Shown here one piece after another: positions 5,965 to 64,000 of a DNA stretch of 64,000 nt. Both the position numbers and the translations under genes were made by a program. How positions within the stretch are numbered: the first letter of the stretch is position 1; every line of letters starts with the position of its first letter. Below the pieces are notes generated by a model that did not search any database, was not told where the DNA came from, and saw nothing but the letters and a program-made list of their open reading frames with translations. Origin of the DNA: Escherichia coli (GTDB lineage: Bacteria; Pseudomonadota; Gammaproteobacteria; Enterobacterales; Enterobacteriaceae); the NCBI RefSeq assembly GCF_003991155.1, contig NZ_CP031295.1. The stretch is one strand, 5' to 3'.

Positions 5965-6347
5965 GTTCAACGCAGAAACCCGCCGACGTCACGGCAGAAC
6001 AACGCATCCACTGGTGGTGGATGGTGCCGGGATGCCTGGCAATGGTGTTACTGAACGCAGCCGTCAGTTACGGCATTGTCAGACTGAACGCACCGGTGAC
6101 TGTCGCCTTCAACATGAAACAGACCGTGGATGCGTTTTTTGACAGCGCCAGTCAGAAACAACTGTCAGAAGCACAGTCAAAAGCCCTTTCAGCGCGTTTT
6201 AACACGGCACTGGAAGCCAGCCTGCAGGCGTGGCAGCAGAAACACCACGCGGTCATTCTGGTGTCGCCTGCTGTGGTACAGGGGGCACCGGATATCACCC
6301 GGGAAATCCAGCAGGATATTGCCCGGCGAATGAGGGCGGAACCATGA
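5961..6347 (+). CDS. trbI: TrbI
   Basis: 128-aa ORF with N-terminal TM helix, overlaps traC stop and traW start. Confidence 0.7.
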   Translation: MSSTQKPADVTAEQRIHWWWMVPGCLAMVLLNAAVSYGIVRLNAPVTVAFNMKQTVDAFFDSASQKQLSEAQSKALSARFNTALEASLQAWQQKHHAVILVSPAVVQGAPDITREIQQDIARRMRAEP

Positions 6348-6976
6348 GATGCCGGGGGCTGATTGCCCTGCTGATATGGGGGCAGAGTGTGGCCGCCGCC
6401 GATCTTGGTACCTGGGGCGATCTGTGGCCGGTAAAGGAGCCGGACATGCTGACGGTGATCATGCAGCGCCTGACGGCACTGGAGCAGTCCGGTGAGATGG
6501 GCCGGAAAATGGATGCCTTTAAGGAGCGGGTGATCCGCAACAGTCTGCGGCCCCCTGCCGTGCCCGGTATCGGACGCACGGAGAAATACGGCAGCCGGTT
6601 GTTTGACCCGTCCGTCAGACTGGCTGCGGATATCCGGGATAACGAAGGGCGGGTGTTTGCCCGTCAGGGTGAAGTGATGAATCCGCTGCAGTATGTTCCT
6701 TTTAACCAGACGCTGTATTTCATCAATGGCGATGATCCGGCGCAGGTGGCCTGGATGAAACGCCAGACGCCGCCCACACTGGAGAGCAAAATTATCCTCG
6801 TGCAGGGCAGTATCCCGGAGATGCAGAAAGCGCTGGACAGCCGTATTTACTTTGACCAGAACGGTGTGCTCTGCCAGCGCCTCGGCATTGATCAGGTCCC
6901 GGCACGGGTGAGCGCCGTTCCCGGCGATCGCTTCCTGAAGGTGGAATTTATTCCGGCAGAGGAGGGCAGAAAATGA
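6344..6976 (+). CDS. traW: TraW pilus assembly protein (internal ATG at 6344 used instead of the longer ORF start at 6230)
   Basis: MRCRGLIALLIWGQSVAA signal peptide; ATGA overlap with trbI stop. Confidence 0.8.
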   Translation: MRCRGLIALLIWGQSVAAADLGTWGDLWPVKEPDMLTVIMQRLTALEQSGEMGRKMDAFKERVIRNSLRPPAVPGIGRTEKYGSRLFDPSVRLAADIRDNEGRVFARQGEVMNPLQYVPFNQTLYFINGDDPAQVAWMKRQTPPTLESKIILVQGSIPEMQKALDSRIYFDQNGVLCQRLGIDQVPARVSAVPGDRFLKVEFIPAEEGRK

Positions 6977-31019: not shown

Positions 31020-31302
31020 GCTGCCGGGCGGGGACGGAAGTCCCCGCTTTCCGGAAGTGTGAGGTATTTCAGGGGCAGACACCCTATATACCAGAAACAG
31101 CCGGTCCCGCCCGGGGCCGGCACCCTGGCTAAGGCATTTCCAGCTTTTCAGTCATTTCATTATCAAAATCACATTAAACGGTCGTAATCAGACATGATTT
31201 GTGCGCCAACACAGATCATCGTCACAACTTTCAAGTCGCTGATTTCAAAAAACTGTAGTATTCTCTGCGAAACGATCCCTGTTTGAGAATTGAGGAGGCG
31301 AG

Positions 31303-56545: not shown

Positions 56546-56688
56546 TCTTTCTTTTTTATCGGAGATCCGAAAAAAGGTTAAGTCTGATCTTAATGAAATT
56601 ACATGGAATTTGAGTGATATCCCTTACCCCACATCTCCAACGTGCTATCTATAAAGGTTGATACATCTCACTTAGTCCGGAGGTTGTT

Positions 56689-56979
56689 ATGAGCGTCAAA
56701 ATCACAGGTTTAGACAAAATGCAGAAACAGCTAAAAGAGGTTGAGAGAGCAACAGAGGCATTAAACGGAAGTTATGATGTCCACTTCGATGCTAACGATC
56801 CTGTCAGCATTGAGAACGCGATTCAGGAAGCCTATTCCATGGTGTACGAACGCGCTTCTGGTTATGCCACTAATCCGATGGTCAGCCCATTAATCGAACA
56901 CATGAAAGAAAATCTGCGCCAACAGATTCTGGACAGAGCAGAACAACAAAGACAGGAGAGCGGGCAGGATGGCAATTGA
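56689..56979 (+). CDS. Hypothetical small protein (96 aa), first gene of operon with TIR-like protein
   Basis: ORF with 11-nt overlap onto downstream gene start; no recognised motif. Confidence 0.35.
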   Translation: MSVKITGLDKMQKQLKEVERATEALNGSYDVHFDANDPVSIENAIQEAYSMVYERASGYATNPMVSPLIEHMKENLRQQILDRAEQQRQESGQDGN

Positions 56980-57868
56980 TATCTTTCAGTCACTTAAAAA
57001 TTGCGTATTCGACCTTCAGCGCGCTGACGTTCAGAACTATCAGCAACCTCTTAAGCAATTGGCCCGGCTCTTGAACTCAGAGAATCTGCAGTCAGTTAAT
57101 GCACATCTGACCCGCAATGTTGAACTTGATACCTTTCTGGCCAGGAGTGAAGATACTGAATCCAGCATGGCTGGTTCCGCTGTTCTACAGTGGCCTGATG
57201 AGCCCGCTGATATTTTGGGCCTGAAGTTGCTGCTGATCGAGAAAATGGCAGACGATAACAATTTTTCCTTTAATTTCTGTCATACATTTTTCTATGATCG
57301 AAACATTATTGAATCCATTCGAAAATTCACGTCGTCATTAGTTGCCCCGTTCGTGCGCGATTACCAGTTGTATGTGGAAAACCAACACGATCCTGAGCCT
57401 GCAGTGTTTCGGCCGGTTTCCCGAAAAATTTTTATTGTTCATGGCCATGATAATGATGCCCTTCAGTCTGTTGCCCGTTTTATATCCCGGATAGGTCTTG
57501 AGGAAATCATTCTTTCAGAACGTCCTGACGGCTCCAGGACGATTATCGAGAAATTTGAAGCAGAGTCAGGGGATGTCAGTTTTGCCATCGTGCTGATGAC
57601 GCCCGACGATAGCGGCAGTGCTCTGGCATCTGAAAGCACACGTCTCCGCGCACGCCAGAATGTCCTGTATGAGCTCGGATATTTCGCCGGGAAGCTTGGA
57701 CGCGGGAAAGTACTTGTACTCAGGAAGGGAGATATCGAAATCCCTTCAGATCTTGCCGGGGTTCTCTATACCGAGCTTGATGAGCATGGTGGATGGAAAC
57801 GCAAACTGCTGAGTGAGCTTGCGTATGCCGGTGTTCCTTTTGACAAGGATAAAGCATTAAGCGCCTGA
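56969..57868 (+). CDS. Protein with C-terminal TIR-like nucleotide-binding domain
   Basis: C-terminal ~140 aa with KIFIVHGHD ... FAIVLMTPDD ... NVLYELGYFAGKLGRGKV pattern resembling bacterial TIR-like domains; N-terminal ~150 aa unrecognised; RBS aggagag upstream. Confidence 0.5.
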   Translation: MAIDIFQSLKNCVFDLQRADVQNYQQPLKQLARLLNSENLQSVNAHLTRNVELDTFLARSEDTESSMAGSAVLQWPDEPADILGLKLLLIEKMADDNNFSFNFCHTFFYDRNIIESIRKFTSSLVAPFVRDYQLYVENQHDPEPAVFRPVSRKIFIVHGHDNDALQSVARFISRIGLEEIILSERPDGSRTIIEKFEAESGDVSFAIVLMTPDDSGSALASESTRLRARQNVLYELGYFAGKLGRGKVLVLRKGDIEIPSDLAGVLYTELDEHGGWKRKLLSELAYAGVPFDKDKALSA

Positions 57869-57885
57869 TCTCCTTCATTTAGTAA

Positions 57886-57915
57886 GAAAAAGGCCGCTAA
57901 GCGGCCTTAATTTTT
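57886..57915. terminator. Bidirectional rho-independent terminator between convergent genes
   Basis: aaaaaggccgc taa gcggccttaattttt: GC stem flanked by A-run and T-run. Confidence 0.6.
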
Positions 57916-57917
57916 GG

Positions 57918-60143
57918 TCAGTCGTCATTTTCCAGCGCTGTTTTGAGCGCTTCCTGCTCCGGAGTCAGCTCGTTGCCGGACAGCATAACCTTCAACTTCT
58001 CTTCGACTGCTGGCCAGTCATCAAAGAACGGACTGACCTGGTCACGCGCAATCCGGCGATATGCCCCTCGGTGGGAGCTGAAGACACTGGTCTGTAATCG
58101 TATCAACAGGTTAACAAGGCCTTCATCAGTGGTAGTAACTTCTCTGACCCATTGCTTCACGGTTTCACCTGAACTCATGTCTCTCCAGGCGTAGAGATAC
58201 CCGAGAAGAGACTTGCGCAGGAGAAGCTGTTGCTGAAGTTCTGGTTGATTCATACGTTCCGCAAACCTGTCACGCAACCGTTCCGTAATATCGCGACTGA
58301 AAAGAGCGTCTGAAGGCGAAGGTACTGCATTCTGAGCAAGTCCATGTTCCCAGATAAGATCCCGCATAAAATCGGCTATCCAGAACGGCGAAGCACCCGT
58401 AACGATCAGTTTTTCCATAAGCGTGATCGTTCTGGTCTCATCAATATCCTGCATATGCTTCAGCAGATGCCGTACAACCTCATTAATGGCCATTTCACGC
58501 AGGGAAAACCATGGGTTACGGATACTGAAGCGAGTGCTCACCTCATCGGTGTGATCGAAGAAAAAATGAACCAGTCCTGCGCACTCTTCGAAATTACGTT
58601 CTCTTATCAGGCCTGGAGTCAGTCTGCTCAGTATATGTTCAAACCAGGTTCCGGACAGACTGCCCACACTGTTGATTTTTGAGAGCAGCAATTCAGAAAG
58701 CTGCTGCTGTTTTTCCGATACGCCAGCCTGTTCAAAAAGCTGTCTGAAGAATTCAGGTGGCAGAACATTCTGTGGTGAGGAGAAGGCAAAATAATATCGC
58801 CAGTGCGTCAGGCTGCTGAGTCGTTTACCGGTCGTCTGGATATGACGAAAATCCTCACTGACGGGCTCAAAAAGATTCAGATATTCATCATTATGTCCAC
58901 TGATACCTGGGATCCAGTCTGCAAGTGTCAGAAACGAGTCTGCATTTGATGCCCTGAACGTCTTCATACATCTGATAAGCCCCTCCCGGAAGTCTGCTTT
59001 CTCTCCGTCAGAAAGCATACCCTGACCGGTTTCAATCACGGACCGTTCTGTCAGGTAATGCTCTGTCCAGTCATACAGAGCCGGGTTTGTCACCCGTATA
59101 AGCTGAAGCAGGCACAAATCAGGGAAATAAACAAAATCCCGCATCCCCGGATAAAGAAAAATCAGGGAATTAATGGCCTGATGGATTTCCCGTGGCGTCG
59201 AAAGTGCGGCACCATAGGTATCAGTCACCGCGATGAGATCCCTTACCATTCCAGAGTCTGGCGGTTGATTATTAATTTGCTGATATAGAGCCTCAGCCCG
59301 CTGGCGAAATTCATTACGTAAATCAAAGGCTTCAGGTCGGGGTAATTTAAAACTAAGCTGAATGATTTTCTGGAGATAACGGCTGCCATCTTCGATATTC
59401 AGCGCATGTTCAACGGCATGAGTGATAATCTGCCTGTCATAACAGAGAATATGGGTAAAGCGGGGCAGATCGGCTACTGCACGCACAAGCCTGAACACTT
59501 CCGCCACCTGGGATGGCTCCAGTCGGTCCAGATCATCCATGACAACAATGAACTTCAGATCCAGACTCACCAGTTGTCCTGCAATTTCAGCCCGAAGCTT
59601 TGTCGTGGTTTTCTGATCAACAGCCAGACGGCTGTCTGAAAATACCTTTATTCCGCCTGCTATCCAGTTAATAATGCTGGAAAACTGTCCGATATATTGA
59701 ACCAGTGGAAGGACGCGCGATGAAGTATCCTGAGCATACTCAATCACTTTTTGAGCTTCCGGTGACAACAGATATTTACGCCAGAGCTTTTTGAAGCCCT
59801 TCGGGGGATAGCGTATTTCCATTTCCTGCTGGATAACCGTGGCAACCGGAAGAAAGAGCGCTTCAACCGGACTGCCGCCACTCAGCCAGGGAGAAATATG
59901 CAGCACATGCGTGTGAGCATCTTTTTTCAGGGCAAGGTTTCTCAGGATCAGATTAAGGAGGCTTGTTTTACCCGATCCCCATGCACCTTCTATTCCGACA
60001 ACATTTGAAGCCTCCAGAGGAAGAGTAAGGATGGAACGGGATATATTTTCTGCGATATTACCGAAACCGTATCGATCCTCAGGTACATCTTCAACTGCCG
60101 CATCAAGCCCTTTCTGGTTCCACAGCTGCCTCAGTATCTTCAT
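57918..60143 (-). CDS. KAP-family P-loop NTPase
   Basis: 741 aa; Walker A GIEGAWGSGKTSLLNLI, Walker B FIVVMDDLDRLEP, large helical C-terminal region. Confidence 0.7.
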   Translation of the reverse strand: MKILRQLWNQKGLDAAVEDVPEDRYGFGNIAENISRSILTLPLEASNVVGIEGAWGSGKTSLLNLILRNLALKKDAHTHVLHISPWLSGGSPVEALFLPVATVIQQEMEIRYPPKGFKKLWRKYLLSPEAQKVIEYAQDTSSRVLPLVQYIGQFSSIINWIAGGIKVFSDSRLAVDQKTTTKLRAEIAGQLVSLDLKFIVVMDDLDRLEPSQVAEVFRLVRAVADLPRFTHILCYDRQIITHAVEHALNIEDGSRYLQKIIQLSFKLPRPEAFDLRNEFRQRAEALYQQINNQPPDSGMVRDLIAVTDTYGAALSTPREIHQAINSLIFLYPGMRDFVYFPDLCLLQLIRVTNPALYDWTEHYLTERSVIETGQGMLSDGEKADFREGLIRCMKTFRASNADSFLTLADWIPGISGHNDEYLNLFEPVSEDFRHIQTTGKRLSSLTHWRYYFAFSSPQNVLPPEFFRQLFEQAGVSEKQQQLSELLLSKINSVGSLSGTWFEHILSRLTPGLIRERNFEECAGLVHFFFDHTDEVSTRFSIRNPWFSLREMAINEVVRHLLKHMQDIDETRTITLMEKLIVTGASPFWIADFMRDLIWEHGLAQNAVPSPSDALFSRDITERLRDRFAERMNQPELQQQLLLRKSLLGYLYAWRDMSSGETVKQWVREVTTTDEGLVNLLIRLQTSVFSSHRGAYRRIARDQVSPFFDDWPAVEEKLKVMLSGNELTPEQEALKTALENDD

Positions 60144-60144
60144 A

Positions 60145-61236
60145 TTACAGATCTCCGTACAGGCAGCGCAGCCCGGTCAGGGCCTCCGCCAGCGGGCCTT
60201 CTTGACACCGCGTGGCGAGCTCCCGGACCAGCGTCTCAAAGGCCTCCGCCGGCATAAAAATCCGCAGGCCGTCTATCCCGAAGAAGCCCTCCGGCGTGAC
60301 GTTTCCGGGCGGGGAGAACATCACTCGCTCCCCCTGGTGACCGTGCGTCAGGGCTTCCGGATGCCGGGCATACAGCGTGAACAGGCCCAGCAGTTCGGAT
60401 AACGCTTCCCAGCCGTACGGCACCACGAAGTCCTGGCCGGTGATCAGCAGGTGCAGACGGGGTGTGGTGTACCAGGCCCCCGGGCGTTCTCCGGGGTGCT
60501 GGCCGTCAACGCGGATCTCCAGGCGCAGCGTGCCGGCCTCAATGGTTTCCGTGACGGCAGAAATAACCGGGCGCAGCTCCTGTGCCAGCGTTCTTGCCTG
60601 TTCTGTGTTCCAGTCCAGGCCGCGCAGCATCAACGGGAAAACAGCTTTCAGCCGCGGCAGGGTGAAGATTTCTGCCAGCACCGCGTCCGGCACCTCCGCC
60701 AGGCCAAAACAGTCGCTCTCGAGCGGACGCAGGAGGTGTTCGGCATACATCTGATCCACCACGGGGCGCAGCGCTGCCCGGAAGGCTTCAAACTCTTCCG
60801 TCCAGTTTTTCCCGGCCAGGCGGAAAATCCCCTTCAGGTAGTGACCGTCCACAGGGCGATCGTGCTCCACCTGCCAGGCCAGCAGGTTGCCAGTGATGTC
60901 CAGCAGCGTGTCCAGGGCCGGGAGTGTGGCCAGCCTATTATGCCCGCGCAGGAAGGCCTCCCTGACGTGAACCAGGACAAAGCGCAGTTCGTCGCGGGAG
61001 AGCGCTGACGTGCCGAAGGTCTGGCCCAGAATGATATGCCGGTACAGCTGCCGGACCGTGGCCTCCGGATCGGCAATGAGCTGAAAATACCCGTCACCGG
61101 GCGCGACCGTTTTCAGGCCGTCATCGAGGAAGCGTTCGGCTAGGGCGTTGACCGAAGTATTTTCCCGACCGGCACGCGTTTTCAGCGCCTCGATAAGTTT
61201 TTTGTGAAAACGCAGGTTAAGCTGGCTTAGCATCAT
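60145..61236 (-). CDS. Protein with N-terminal ribbon-helix-helix (RHH) motif and large unknown C-terminal domain
   Basis: 363 aa; N-terminal LNLRFHKKLIEALKTRAGRENTSVNALAERFL resembles Arc/MetJ/CopG RHH; stop is 1 nt from KAP NTPase start. Confidence 0.5.
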   Translation of the reverse strand: MMLSQLNLRFHKKLIEALKTRAGRENTSVNALAERFLDDGLKTVAPGDGYFQLIADPEATVRQLYRHIILGQTFGTSALSRDELRFVLVHVREAFLRGHNRLATLPALDTLLDITGNLLAWQVEHDRPVDGHYLKGIFRLAGKNWTEEFEAFRAALRPVVDQMYAEHLLRPLESDCFGLAEVPDAVLAEIFTLPRLKAVFPLMLRGLDWNTEQARTLAQELRPVISAVTETIEAGTLRLEIRVDGQHPGERPGAWYTTPRLHLLITGQDFVVPYGWEALSELLGLFTLYARHPEALTHGHQGERVMFSPPGNVTPEGFFGIDGLRIFMPAEAFETLVRELATRCQEGPLAEALTGLRCLYGDL

Positions 61237-61777
61237 CGATCCTTTAATGTTTGTTTTGTTCTTAATGCTAACCTAGCATTTTATTATTAGCTATTAATCA
61301 GTTTTTTAGTTTTTGAAAATTGTGATGCTTCTAAAATTGAGGATTTTAATGCTACAACAATGCCTGCCTCTTCTTATTTCTCCGGAGATCCGAAAACCCC
61401 AGGTTACGGATCTTCCTCTCCCCCCACACAACGCCACCTCCTGTCAGCACAACATGTGGTATCTCATTCAGCTGCTCATGACACTATATGTTGTGTCATC
61501 TCCCTGACCTGTGATGCGCCGCGCAGGGGCGGAAAACAGCGATATGATTATTTTCTCAGCGTGGTACACTTCCGGAAAGTTGTGATATTCCGGAAAGTCG
61601 GATCTGACGGAAACGGCTCTCCGGTAATTTAACTGCGTTTCTATATGGCTACTTATTATTTCAGTATGTGAAATTCATTTTTTGTGAAAGTCACTGTTCT
61701 CAACAGAGTGGCACTCATCTGGCGATGATTGAGGTGTGGTAAAATTGCACGGCTAACTATTCAACTGAGGAAAGGAC

Positions 61778-62128
61778 ATGTTTACTGCATTCAATGAGAG
61801 AAATGATTTCAGTTATGCTTTTGAAAAAATCCGTAATGCGATTTCCGCGCCAGGAGAAAATAATCTTTATGCTGCAACAGAATTAGGTCTTGGCATTCTG
61901 CTCCGTAAATACGAGCAGTTTCGCCAGGAACTGGATGCGGCCGGTGAGCTGGGAAACTGGGAATATGATCTCGATACCTACAATCACTGTATTGCGGTGC
62001 TGCAACGTTACTTCACCGGCAATCCATCCGGGCTCACAGAACGTGATGCCCGGATTTACAGCCATTACCTGCAGACTGAGCACAAAGGCTTTGTGAAGCT
62101 GGCTGAAGAACTGGCTGCCGACCGCTGA
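61778..62128 (+). CDS. Hypothetical protein (116 aa)
   Basis: ORF with upstream promoter-like AT-rich region; no recognised motif. Confidence 0.3.
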   Translation: MFTAFNERNDFSYAFEKIRNAISAPGENNLYAATELGLGILLRKYEQFRQELDAAGELGNWEYDLDTYNHCIAVLQRYFTGNPSGLTERDARIYSHYLQTEHKGFVKLAEELAADR

Positions 62129-62171
62129 ATACATACAGAAGGCGGGATTTCTCAACAATAAAGGAATAAAC

Positions 62172-62861
62172 ATGGCTGACTGGTTTATTGCGACCGAAGG
62201 CGTGAAGGTGGTGAAGGACAGCGCCAGTCTGGGGCCGCAGATAATTACAGCTGTATCGACCATCGCATCTGCTGTCGGAGCGGTGTTCCTTACTCACCAC
62301 TTCACACTCAGACGTGAGGAGAGAACTGCAGCAGCGAAGCTGGCCAGCGAGCGTCTTTACATTAGTACAGAGCTGGTTTTTTTACTTGAGCGATTTGCGC
62401 AGCGTTGCGCTCCAGCAGCAACAGCAACTGTGGAGCACGATCAGGATGGCAGAGGAGAAGCTGAGTTCTTATTACCGGAAATCGATTATTCCCCGGTATC
62501 TGGTAACTGGCGCTCCCTTCCTTCTGGCCTGATGTATAGGCTCAGCGAACTCTCTGTTCTCAGCTACGAAGCTGTCGTGTGTGTAGATAATGTGTTTGTT
62601 GAAGATACTCCTTATGGTGGAGCGGGTGAATATAGTTTGCATAAAAACGCAGCTATGTTGGGAGTAAAAGCACTGCGGTTATCACGAGAACTGAGAATGT
62701 TATGTGGCCTCCCTCTGCACGGCCTTTCCGATACACTATCGCCAACGAGGTTGGTATTGTTGAAAGCCAGAGGTAAAACACTCCAAAAGGAGTACGAAAT
62801 GGTAAAGAAGTCTAAAAAGACCGAGCAAGAGATTGAGGATTTCATAAAGGGGACATCATGA
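62172..62861 (+). CDS. Hypothetical protein with N-terminal TM helix (229 aa)
   Basis: Hydrophobic segment QIITAVSTIASAVGAVFL; stop overlaps resD start. Confidence 0.3.
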   Translation: MADWFIATEGVKVVKDSASLGPQIITAVSTIASAVGAVFLTHHFTLRREERTAAAKLASERLYISTELVFLLERFAQRCAPAATATVEHDQDGRGEAEFLLPEIDYSPVSGNWRSLPSGLMYRLSELSVLSYEAVVCVDNVFVEDTPYGGAGEYSLHKNAAMLGVKALRLSRELRMLCGLPLHGLSDTLSPTRLVLLKARGKTLQKEYEMVKKSKKTEQEIEDFIKGTS

Positions 62862-63649
62862 GTGGCCCACAATTGCTTTCCCTGCCAGGTTCTTTTTTAA
62901 CGCCTCCGGCAACATTACCTGTTGCCATTGATTACCCGGCTGCGCTGGCACTACGTCAGATGGCACTTGTGCAGGACGAATTACCAAAATATCTGTTGGC
63001 GCCGGAGATCAGCGCCCTGCTCCACTATGTACCGGATCTGCACCGCAAAATGTTGCTGGCCACCCTGTGGAACACGGGCGCACGTATAAACGAAGCGCTG
63101 GCGCTGACGCGGGGAGATTTTTCTCTGGCGCCGCCATATCCGTTCGTACAGCTGGCCACGCTCAAACAACGGACTGAAAAAGCGACCAGAACGGCAGGCC
63201 GTGTCCCTGCTGGCAGTCAGGTGCATCGCCTGGTTCCCCTGTCCGATACACAATACGTCAGCCAACTGCAGATGATGGTGGCCACGCTGAAAATCCCACT
63301 GGAGCGCAGAAACAAACGAACCGGAAGAATGGAGAAGGCGCGCATCTGGGGAATCACCGACCGCACAGTTCGCACCTGGCTGAATGAAGCTGTAGAGGCC
63401 GCTGCGGCCGACGGCGTGACGTTCTCTGTTCCGGTTACCCCACATACTTTCCGCCATTCCTACGCGATGCATATGCTGTATGCTGGTATTCCGCTGAAGG
63501 TGCTGCAGAGCCTGATGGGGCACAAGTCGATTAGTTCGACAGAGGTGTACACGAAGGTGTTTGCGCTGGATGTGGCTGCACGGCACCGGGTGCAGTTTTC
63601 GATGCCTGAGTCCGATGCTGTCACAATGCTGAAAAACAGACACGCATAA
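62858..63649 (+). CDS. resD: ResD-like tyrosine site-specific recombinase (plasmid multimer resolvase)
   Basis: 263 aa with catalytic-domain HTFRHSYAMHMLYAGIPLKVLQSLMGHKSISSTEVYTKV (R..H..Y). Confidence 0.8.
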   Translation: MSGPQLLSLPGSFLTPPATLPVAIDYPAALALRQMALVQDELPKYLLAPEISALLHYVPDLHRKMLLATLWNTGARINEALALTRGDFSLAPPYPFVQLATLKQRTEKATRTAGRVPAGSQVHRLVPLSDTQYVSQLQMMVATLKIPLERRNKRTGRMEKARIWGITDRTVRTWLNEAVEAAAADGVTFSVPVTPHTFRHSYAMHMLYAGIPLKVLQSLMGHKSISSTEVYTKVFALDVAARHRVQFSMPESDAVTMLKNRHA

Positions 63650-63826
63650 GTCACAAATCATAATTATGAATTGTGATTTATTCTATAAAAGAAGAGACCA
63701 CTGCAATATGTGATCTCTTGTATTATTTCATAATTGTTAAAGCCACTTCACAGTATGCTCACATTGTACGGATATATTCGTAATGTTTTTTTATATCGAA
63801 TGAACGACAGAAGTTGTGGAGATTTT

Positions 63827-64000
63827 ATGAAAGTAATTAGCATGAAATTTATTTTTATTTTAACGATTATTGCTCTTGCTGCTGTTTTTTTCTGGTCTGA
63901 AGATAAAGGTCCGGCATGCTATCAGGTCAGCGATGAACAGGCCAGAACGTTTGTAAAAAATGATTACCTGCAAAGAATGAAACGCTGGGACAACGATGTA
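63827..64000 (+). CDS. Hypothetical membrane protein (partial, continues beyond window)
   Basis: ATG at 63827 with N-terminal TM helix MKVISMKFIFILTIIALAAVFF; no stop before window end. Confidence 0.3.
   Translation, partial: MKVISMKFIFILTIIALAAVFFWSEDKGPACYQVSDEQARTFVKNDYLQRMKRWDNDV

Follow-up and report, generated by a model that had tools for sequence, protein, structure and literature searches.

Two genes in the ccdAB position of the rfsF-resD operon of an Escherichia coli ColBM-type plasmid are probably independent cargo cassettes

Two small, adjacent and co-directional genes, here named orfA and orfB, lie immediately upstream of the resolvase gene resD in a 64,000-nt stretch of one strand of the Escherichia coli contig NZ_CP031295.1 (assembly GCF_003991155.1). 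We refer to this stretch as the window, and positions are window positions. The two genes occupy exactly the position that ccdAB has in the F plasmid. Our analysis indicates that orfA and orfB are very probably independent, interchangeable cargo cassettes, carried in a promoter-proximal bay of the rfsF-resD operon, which in F holds ccdAB. A phage-defence role for orfB, as a membrane-anchored exclusion protein, is a possible reading of its sequence that we put forward tentatively, and a Ccd-like addiction module is quite improbable.

A preliminary description of this DNA had placed ccdAB upstream of resD in F-like plasmids. The F record (NC_002483) confirms this order: pifA and pifC point to the left and, divergently from them, ccdA, ccdB, the integrase gene (resD), repE and sopAB follow to the right. 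In the window, orfA and orfB stand in that slot. The window and F are 98% identical over 56563-61645, which takes in pifA, pifC and the rfsF region; beyond approximately 61645 no homology is seen until a point within resD, from where the nucleotide identity is about 80% (the two ResD proteins are 91% identical over 244 aa). Identity to R64 is 99% up to 61659, and homology to IncI-gamma plasmids also ends at 61659. On the basis of its homology with F, the intergenic DNA at 61237-61659 was identified as the rfsF region.

Within this region lies a 15-nt core, GTACACTTCCGGAAA (61564-61578), which is found without mismatch in F, R64, IncR, IncI-gamma/K, Atlantibacter, Leclercia, Klebsiella and Rahnella loci, as well as in several chromosomal loci or integrative and conjugative elements (ICEs). 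In all loci examined it is consistently upstream of the first gene of the bay. The conserved core at 61564-61598 is, judging from its homology, a probable crossover or binding site for ResD. In earlier work, IncI1 and IncR plasmids were described as switching their flanking sets of genes at rfsF (PMC8004404, PMC9412624). A second sequence resembling the core, TCACACTTCCGGAAAGC, occurs at 31046-31062 on the minus strand with three mismatches, which is near chance (two matches were obtained in 2 of 100 shuffles).

The contents of the bay were compared across loci; this census is a sample rather than a count (the contig scan gave 12 loci). On IncR plasmids, orfA is 98% identical at the amino acid level and its leader is 88% identical at the nucleotide level (over 61469-62170), and the gene that follows is an orfB homologue that is only 30-35% identical and has a different N-terminus. 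An IncI-gamma/K plasmid carries an intact orfB at 90% identity without orfA. orfB is also found without orfA on an Atlantibacter chromosome and in a Pectobacterium ICE, where it is preceded by a gene for a 119-aa, weakly DUF3223-like protein; altogether, roughly half of the loci with an orfB homologue have no orfA. orfA proteins of 84% or 71% identity are found beside unrelated proteins or with no partner. The next gene encodes an unrelated protein of 202/204 aa in the commonest E. coli variant (71% identity) and on a Pantoea alhagi plasmid, and a 273/257-aa protein containing the motif R[NH]DLVHRNG in Citrobacter and Pantoea ananatis. In Leclercia, 171-aa and 75-aa genes come after orfA, and on one metagenomic contig (L050) the integrase gene does so directly. 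orfA has also been kept beside an orfB truncated by an insertion sequence (IS).

The flanks of these genes are much more constant. All eleven contexts of orfA lie between an rfsF region and a ResD-type recombinase gene. For orfB, almost all informative loci have a ResD ortholog as the next gene, and this ortholog is 64-93% identical where the orfB homologue itself is only 32-51% identical. orfA and orfB are therefore each linked to resD, and not to each other. Elsewhere the bay holds ccdAB (F), a single open reading frame (ORF) of 137-150 aa (R64), or, in Klebsiella ATCC 13883, a 312-aa gene of the ribbon-helix-helix (RHH, FitA-like) type, a 269-aa gene and orfB. What stays constant is thus rfsF and resD, with modular cargo that differs between plasmids. 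The 257/273-aa family (L030, 5414-6187; L033, 4410-5231) gives a weak match to HEPN_RiboL-PSP (E value 0.0035, below threshold), and may represent an RNase-type effector.

A possible boundary between cassettes can be recognized in the orfA-orfB spacer. The 15-nt motif GGCGGGATTTCTCAA found there is a conserved element ahead of orfB, even of the 30%-identical IncR type, irrespective of whether orfA is present, and where orfA is followed by another gene, the similarity between loci is lost immediately past GGATTTC. The motif may serve as a junction for recombination or as an element in translation.

Two further observations concern the end of the bay next to resD. In five E. coli plasmid contigs (L025-L029, about 6100-6860), the resD gene downstream of orfA and the 202-aa gene has decayed into fragments of 92 and 97 aa, from which it follows that cargo genes persist after loss of the resolvase. 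An extra small gene is present between the second cargo gene and resD in two loci, encoding 115 aa (L007, 8734-9081) and 75 aa (L011, 6216-6443); the two proteins are 44% identical to each other, and a family search gave no match for them.

The preliminary description suggested that the two genes may be an alternative addiction or exclusion module. In a CcdAB-like addiction module, the toxin would be orfB, acting by damage to the membrane, and the labile antidote in the cytoplasm would be orfA, so that cells losing the plasmid would be killed. Such a module would suit the slot shared with ccdAB, the arrangement of two small co-directional genes with the smaller first, the setting in a plasmid maintenance region that has vapBC-type loci adjacent in relatives, and the presence elsewhere in the bay of ccdAB, an RHH FitA-like protein and a HEPN-like protein. 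A cognate pair is however expected to diverge together, and the partner mixing and solo occurrences described above are the opposite: orfB is intact without orfA, and orfA is almost unchanged beside a very different orfB, and survives beside unrelated genes, a truncated orfB or nothing. Profile searches and fold matches revealed no DNA-binding domain of antitoxin type in orfA (RHH, helix-turn-helix, AbrB or Phd). The spacer between orfA and orfB is 43 nt long, whereas orfB overlaps resD, and the core members of PDC-S67, the candidate family related to orfB that is discussed below, are solitary. As first described, neither protein resembles CcdA or CcdB, there being no Pfam or NCBIfam match to either at E ≤ 1; an orfB profile compared with F CcdA and CcdB gave E values of 0.57 and 4.6. 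Lacking co-variation, strict co-occurrence and an antitoxin domain, the pair does not behave as a ccd-like two-gene module.

Only one segment of the orfB protein is hydrophobic (residues 22-43; 19-residue Kyte-Doolittle mean 1.72), and the residues after it are strongly basic; orfA has no hydrophobic segment. This agrees with the initial description of the 229-aa protein as membrane-anchored and of the 116-aa protein as soluble. Under the positive-inside rule, the basic residues would leave only a short tail in the periplasm and place a C-terminal domain of approximately 185 aa in the cytoplasm. orfB matches no Pfam or NCBIfam family above threshold. Searches of Pfam, NCBIfam, PHROGs and PADLOC with both proteins gave only PDC-S67, for orfB, and PHROGs of unknown function, and profile searches of PDB sequences with both gave no matches. 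The match to the PADLOC hidden Markov model (HMM) of PDC-S67 has an E value of 1.2e-17 (62 bits) and is co-linear, with orfB residues 34-210 (177 residues) aligned to positions 7-186 (180 positions) of the 203 in the model. A profile of the orfB family retrieved 1014 cluster representatives, and all ten members of approximately 200 aa that were tested are core PDC-S67 proteins (PADLOC E values 1e-43 to 1e-81). On this sequence evidence, orfB is a divergent enterobacterial branch of the PDC-S67 superfamily.

PDC-S67 is one of 145 phage-defence candidates in PADLOC-DB v2, which were nominated on the ground that a member was embedded in a BREX, DISARM or type I restriction-modification locus (10.1101/2024.01.29.577857). 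Homologues of one core member are found in Sulfuricurvum, Idiomarina, Marinobacter, Nitrosomonas, Aeromonas and other Proteobacteria. Genomic context was informative for four core members, each of which stands alone and lacks a neighbouring recombinase gene; the four are located beside an N6_Mtase/Methylase_S gene, after guaA, before recC and in an IS-flanked islet. Because core members are solitary, the family seems able to work as a single gene. A literature search found no papers on PDC-S67 or on four RefSeq protein accessions, and PDC-S67 was not found in the searched supplements of the PADLOC-DB v2 source paper.

The surroundings of rfsF are also rich in defence genes. To the left of the rfsF core, each lineage has a different set of defence or toxin-antitoxin genes (L002, L004, L007, L018, L025-L029 and L033-L037; the window equivalent is 57918-61236). 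The window, F, R64 and Pantoea alhagi have PifCA here. The other sets include a CBASS locus (cyclase and 4TM effector, 503 and 549 bits), a Ppl-like ATPase, an AbiJ-like protein, a DpdC-like protein with an SNase, a HEC-04 ATPase, vapBC with a restriction endonuclease, and a pair of small ORFs that we read as RelE/ParE-type, unconfirmed by family search. The left side of rfsF looks like a plasmid defence island anchored at the resolvase site. Of the two functions originally suggested for the pair, exclusion is retained as the lead, on account of the PDC-S67 match of orfB and the defence neighbours, and addiction is not.

Several points weigh against assigning orfB to defence. The match to PDC-S67 is distant (62 bits, compared with 144-268 bits in core members), and the anti-phage role of PDC-S67 itself has candidate status only (10.1101/2024.01.29.577857). 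In the window and about 17 related loci, the enterobacterial branch is always in a recombinase operon and not in a restriction or BREX locus. Guilt by association is weak on plasmids, where maintenance and defence genes mix. Neither orfA nor orfB has an enzymatic or pore-forming signature, both being generic helical bundles, and the tight overlap of orfB with resD could instead mean a functional link with resolution.

The orfA protein has an isoelectric point of 5.0, and its fold is a generic up-down four-helix bundle. No Pfam or NCBIfam family matches it above threshold. It was considered as a HEPN protein (R89-x6-H96), and this was rejected because H96 is not conserved. Among 33 members of the orfA family, 20 give sub-threshold matches to Phage_int_SAM_4 (PF13495), of which the best has an E value of 4.4e-4; the window protein scores 15 bits against a cut-off of 27 bits. 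A role as a detached core-binding domain of ResD was considered, and this weak signal was not corroborated in two reciprocal tests: comparison with the IntI1 N-terminus using hhalign gave a probability of 0.04, and the orfA HMM gave approximately 0 bits against the N-termini of IntI1, XerC and XerD.

Both orfA and orfB are real genes under purifying selection. Pairwise ratios of non-synonymous to synonymous substitution rates (dN/dS) are 0.15-0.35 for orfA and 0.23-0.27 for orfB, compared with 0.06-0.10 for resD, so that orfA and orfB evolve 3-4 times faster than resD. The first 45 codons of orfB are strongly conserved, yet contain 6-18 synonymous codon differences between lineages.

At the protein level, homologues of orfB occur in 2099 and homologues of orfA in 1606 of the 72,556 plasmids in PLSDB. 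At a query coverage of at least 80%, the exact orfA-orfB pair was detected in 325 PLSDB plasmids; among 5426 complete E. coli genomes, 330 (6%) carry it. The ccdAB-resD junction, by way of comparison, is present in 2425 plasmids of PLSDB. The products are labelled “hypothetical” in every annotation source. The preliminary description had noted that related plasmids might show these genes to be conserved backbone with an assigned function: they are indeed part of the backbone of thousands of plasmids, and the only annotation there is “hypothetical.” A phage origin was rejected, as a search of 50,697 phage records gave no DNA match and one weak protein match.

This distribution bears on a further explanation, that the two genes are backbone passengers with some other role in plasmid fitness (in host range, conjugation or, for the acidic orfA, anti-defence), which owe their presence only to a bay that is expressed and that recombination can exchange. 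The absence of an informative domain or fold is consistent with it, as are the very wide carriage on IncR, IncF and IncI-type plasmids and the purifying selection, which implies that some function is retained. It gives no account of the membership of orfB in a family nominated from defence loci, nor of the defence-rich neighbourhood, and we regard it as rather unlikely.

The resD gene is intact, as originally described, with a Phage_integrase domain (E value 1.2e-18). It belongs to the ResD/rfsF system, being an ortholog of F resD with an rfsF-homologous site upstream; this assignment concerns resD and not orfA or orfB. F ResD resolves rfsF dimers in mini-F. In the window protein there are only about 44 residues before the catalytic domain, and no SAM-like N-terminal core-binding domain was detected. 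A second tyrosine recombinase, of 246 aa and 49% identical to ResD, adjoins the RepFIB replication gene of the twin plasmid described below (L001, 20155-20895), so the plasmid carries two ResD-like recombinases.

The short ResD suggests another function for the bay genes, as accessory factors of ResD and rfsF. orfB would then tether or time the resolvase at the membrane, and orfA would supply the DNA-binding or regulatory helical domain that ResD lacks. Both families were seen only between rfsF and resD in every context examined, the orfB stop codon overlaps the resD start codon, and the weak Phage_int_SAM_4 matches of orfA would fit a missing SAM-like domain. That signal failed its reciprocal tests, no recombinase domain appears among the structural matches, and orfA is acidic. 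Moreover, ResD orthologs of about 90% identity are present in F, R64 and pSLT-type plasmids, which have neither orfA nor orfB; their occurrence in F and R64 argues against the two genes being required for resolution. Core PDC-S67 members have no adjacent recombinase, and the much higher evolutionary rate of orfB relative to ResD would be unusual if the two were obligate partners. We judge an accessory role to be unlikely.

The features of the locus are listed in Table 1. The plasmid is of the IncFIB/FIC ColBM type, and cmi comes after resD, as annotated in a twin plasmid (NZ_CP024827) that is 99.9-100% identical over the 12.7 kb compared. The pifA gene is split by IS100 in the twin (approximately 1.95 kb; the window-equivalent insertion point is about 58606-58611) and is intact in the window. 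Its product is identified as PifA by PADLOC (963 bits) and contains a Pfam KAP_NTPase domain (E value 3e-43), and the gene is 98-99% identical in nucleotide sequence to pifA of F and R64. pifC is annotated as “transcriptional repressor PifC” (WP_000952217.1) in both the twin plasmid and F.

Table 1. Positions of genes, sites and motifs around the rfsF-resD bay in the window.
Feature	Position	Strand	Remarks
pifA	57918-60143	-	Left-flank neighbour, intact; phage T7 exclusion, KAP P-loop NTPase, 741 aa
pifC, repressor of pif	60145-61236	-	Divergent from the orfA operon
F-type pifC-ccdA intergenic DNA with rfsF-homologous region	61237-61659		From alignment with F, IncR and IncI-gamma, and BLAST break points
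Inverted repeats AGATCCGAAA/TTACGGATCT	61386-61413		Inside the intergenic DNA
Palindrome	61448-61495		Inside the intergenic DNA
Conserved core GTACACTTCCGGAAAGT, with TTCCGGAAAGT repeated 18 bp apart	61564-61598	+	Probable core of the ResD site
orfA-cassette leader	61660-61777	+	Direct repeats TGTGAAAnTCA (61667-61698)
Candidate extended -10, TGgTAAAAT	61737-61745	+	In the orfA leader; read by eye
orfA	61778-62128	+	116 aa; ribosome-binding site GAGGAAAGGA; soluble, acidic, up-down four-helix bundle
Junction motif GGCGGGATTTCTCAA	62141-62155	+	15 nt, in the orfA-orfB spacer
orfB	62172-62861	+	229 aa; ribosome-binding site AAGGA; inner-membrane-anchored, with a helical bundle in the cytoplasm; divergent PDC-S67 superfamily member
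orfB transmembrane segment	62235-62300	+	Residues 22-43; predicted N-out/C-in
resD	62858-63649	+	263 aa; F ResD-type tyrosine recombinase; last gene of the operon
Terminator-like hairpin	63692-63719		3' of resD
cmi (colicin M immunity), 5' part	63827-64000	+	Right-flank neighbour, cut by the window end; twin-plasmid annotation mapped onto the window

A scan of the operon found no convincing terminator between orfA, orfB and resD, and the stop codon of orfB (TGA, 62859-62861) overlaps the start codon of resD (ATG, 62858-62860) as ATGA, as had been pointed out at the outset. Together these features suggest that the three genes are co-transcribed as a single transcription unit. A promoter just to the right of rfsF would drive this orfA-orfB-resD transcript. 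A scan for consensus promoters upstream of orfA found no site; the orfA leader with the candidate -10 is conserved alongside orfA in IncR, E. coli P0169-type and Citrobacter loci. Rfam searches and RNA folding of the region, including the orfA-orfB spacer, gave no signal and no structure.

We propose that orfB would insert into the membrane in an N-out/C-in orientation and act alone, as a membrane-associated phage-exclusion or abortive-infection protein. Its fast-evolving bundle may sense an infection cue, and the action on the membrane would come from the conserved tail, transmembrane helix and stalk. For orfA we envisage an independent small cytoplasmic protein, perhaps a regulator, an anti-defence protein or a ResD-linked factor, and not an antidote to orfB. 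A more far-reaching proposal is that the rfsF-resD operon is a dedicated cassette-exchange platform, which shuffles defence and addiction genes (ccdAB, the orfB/PDC-S67 types, HEPN-like genes and orfA) with swaps breaking at the rfsF core and at GGCGGGATTTCTCAA. The platform and the defence island across rfsF from it would together make up a mobile immune locus reassorted with the help of ResD, and orfA and orfB would be new plasmid-specific defence or counter-defence proteins. We consider this whole proposal doubtful.

orfA and orfB are common, conserved and uncharacterised, and orfB is a reasonable candidate for a defence gene. ColV/ColBM virulence plasmids carry these genes, as do resistance plasmids of the IncR, IncF and IncI types, amounting to some 2-3% of sequenced plasmids. 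If orfB does prove to be a phage-exclusion protein, this would validate the PDC-S67 candidate family and add a defence gene to PifA-carrying plasmids. The more interesting result is nevertheless not the pair itself, but the modular rfsF-resD bay with its defence-rich surroundings. The position adjacent to rfsF appears to be a swap site for addiction and defence cargo on both sides of the resolvase site, and such swaps would help to explain the mosaicism of clinically important plasmids. The interval between the rfsF core and resD also provides a rule for finding more uncharacterised cargo genes.

Among known systems, orfB resembles PDC-S67 (10.1101/2024.01.29.577857) in being a single-domain protein of approximately 200-250 aa with a co-linear HMM match. 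It differs in having a longer conserved N-terminal tail and in being always located within the rfsF-resD operon; the genes of core members, by contrast, are chromosomal and stand alone.

The locus as a whole is most like ccdA-ccdB-resD of F: in both, the cargo is to the right of pifC and rfsF, is co-oriented with resD, and has its last gene abutting the resD start. In contrast to ccdAB, orfA and orfB have no sequence or profile similarity to CcdA or CcdB and no gyrase-poison fold, they are not a co-inherited pair, and the orfB product is membrane-anchored. The PifA/PifC system of F, which excludes phage T7, is encoded by the adjoining locus, divergent from the shared intergenic region. PifA is a 741-aa KAP NTPase unrelated to orfA or orfB in sequence or fold, and the relation is one of neighbourhood only.

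T4 Imm, P22 SieA, lactococcal Sie2009 and AbiZ are small, fast-evolving membrane proteins of mobile elements, with one or a few helices and without an enzymatic domain. The likeness of orfB to these proteins would be architectural only, and PADLOC and PHROGs revealed no homology of orfA or orfB to such small superinfection-exclusion and abortive-infection proteins.

Finally, the bay resembles integron platforms in combining a tyrosine recombinase, a recombination site, the promoter-proximal exchange of unrelated genes and a short boundary motif. It differs from them in that the recombination site and the recombinase gene flank the cargo, which is co-oriented with the latter and has no attC-like repeats, and in that ResD is an Xer-like resolvase and not IntI. 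Exchange of the bay could be ordinary homologous recombination between its conserved flanks.

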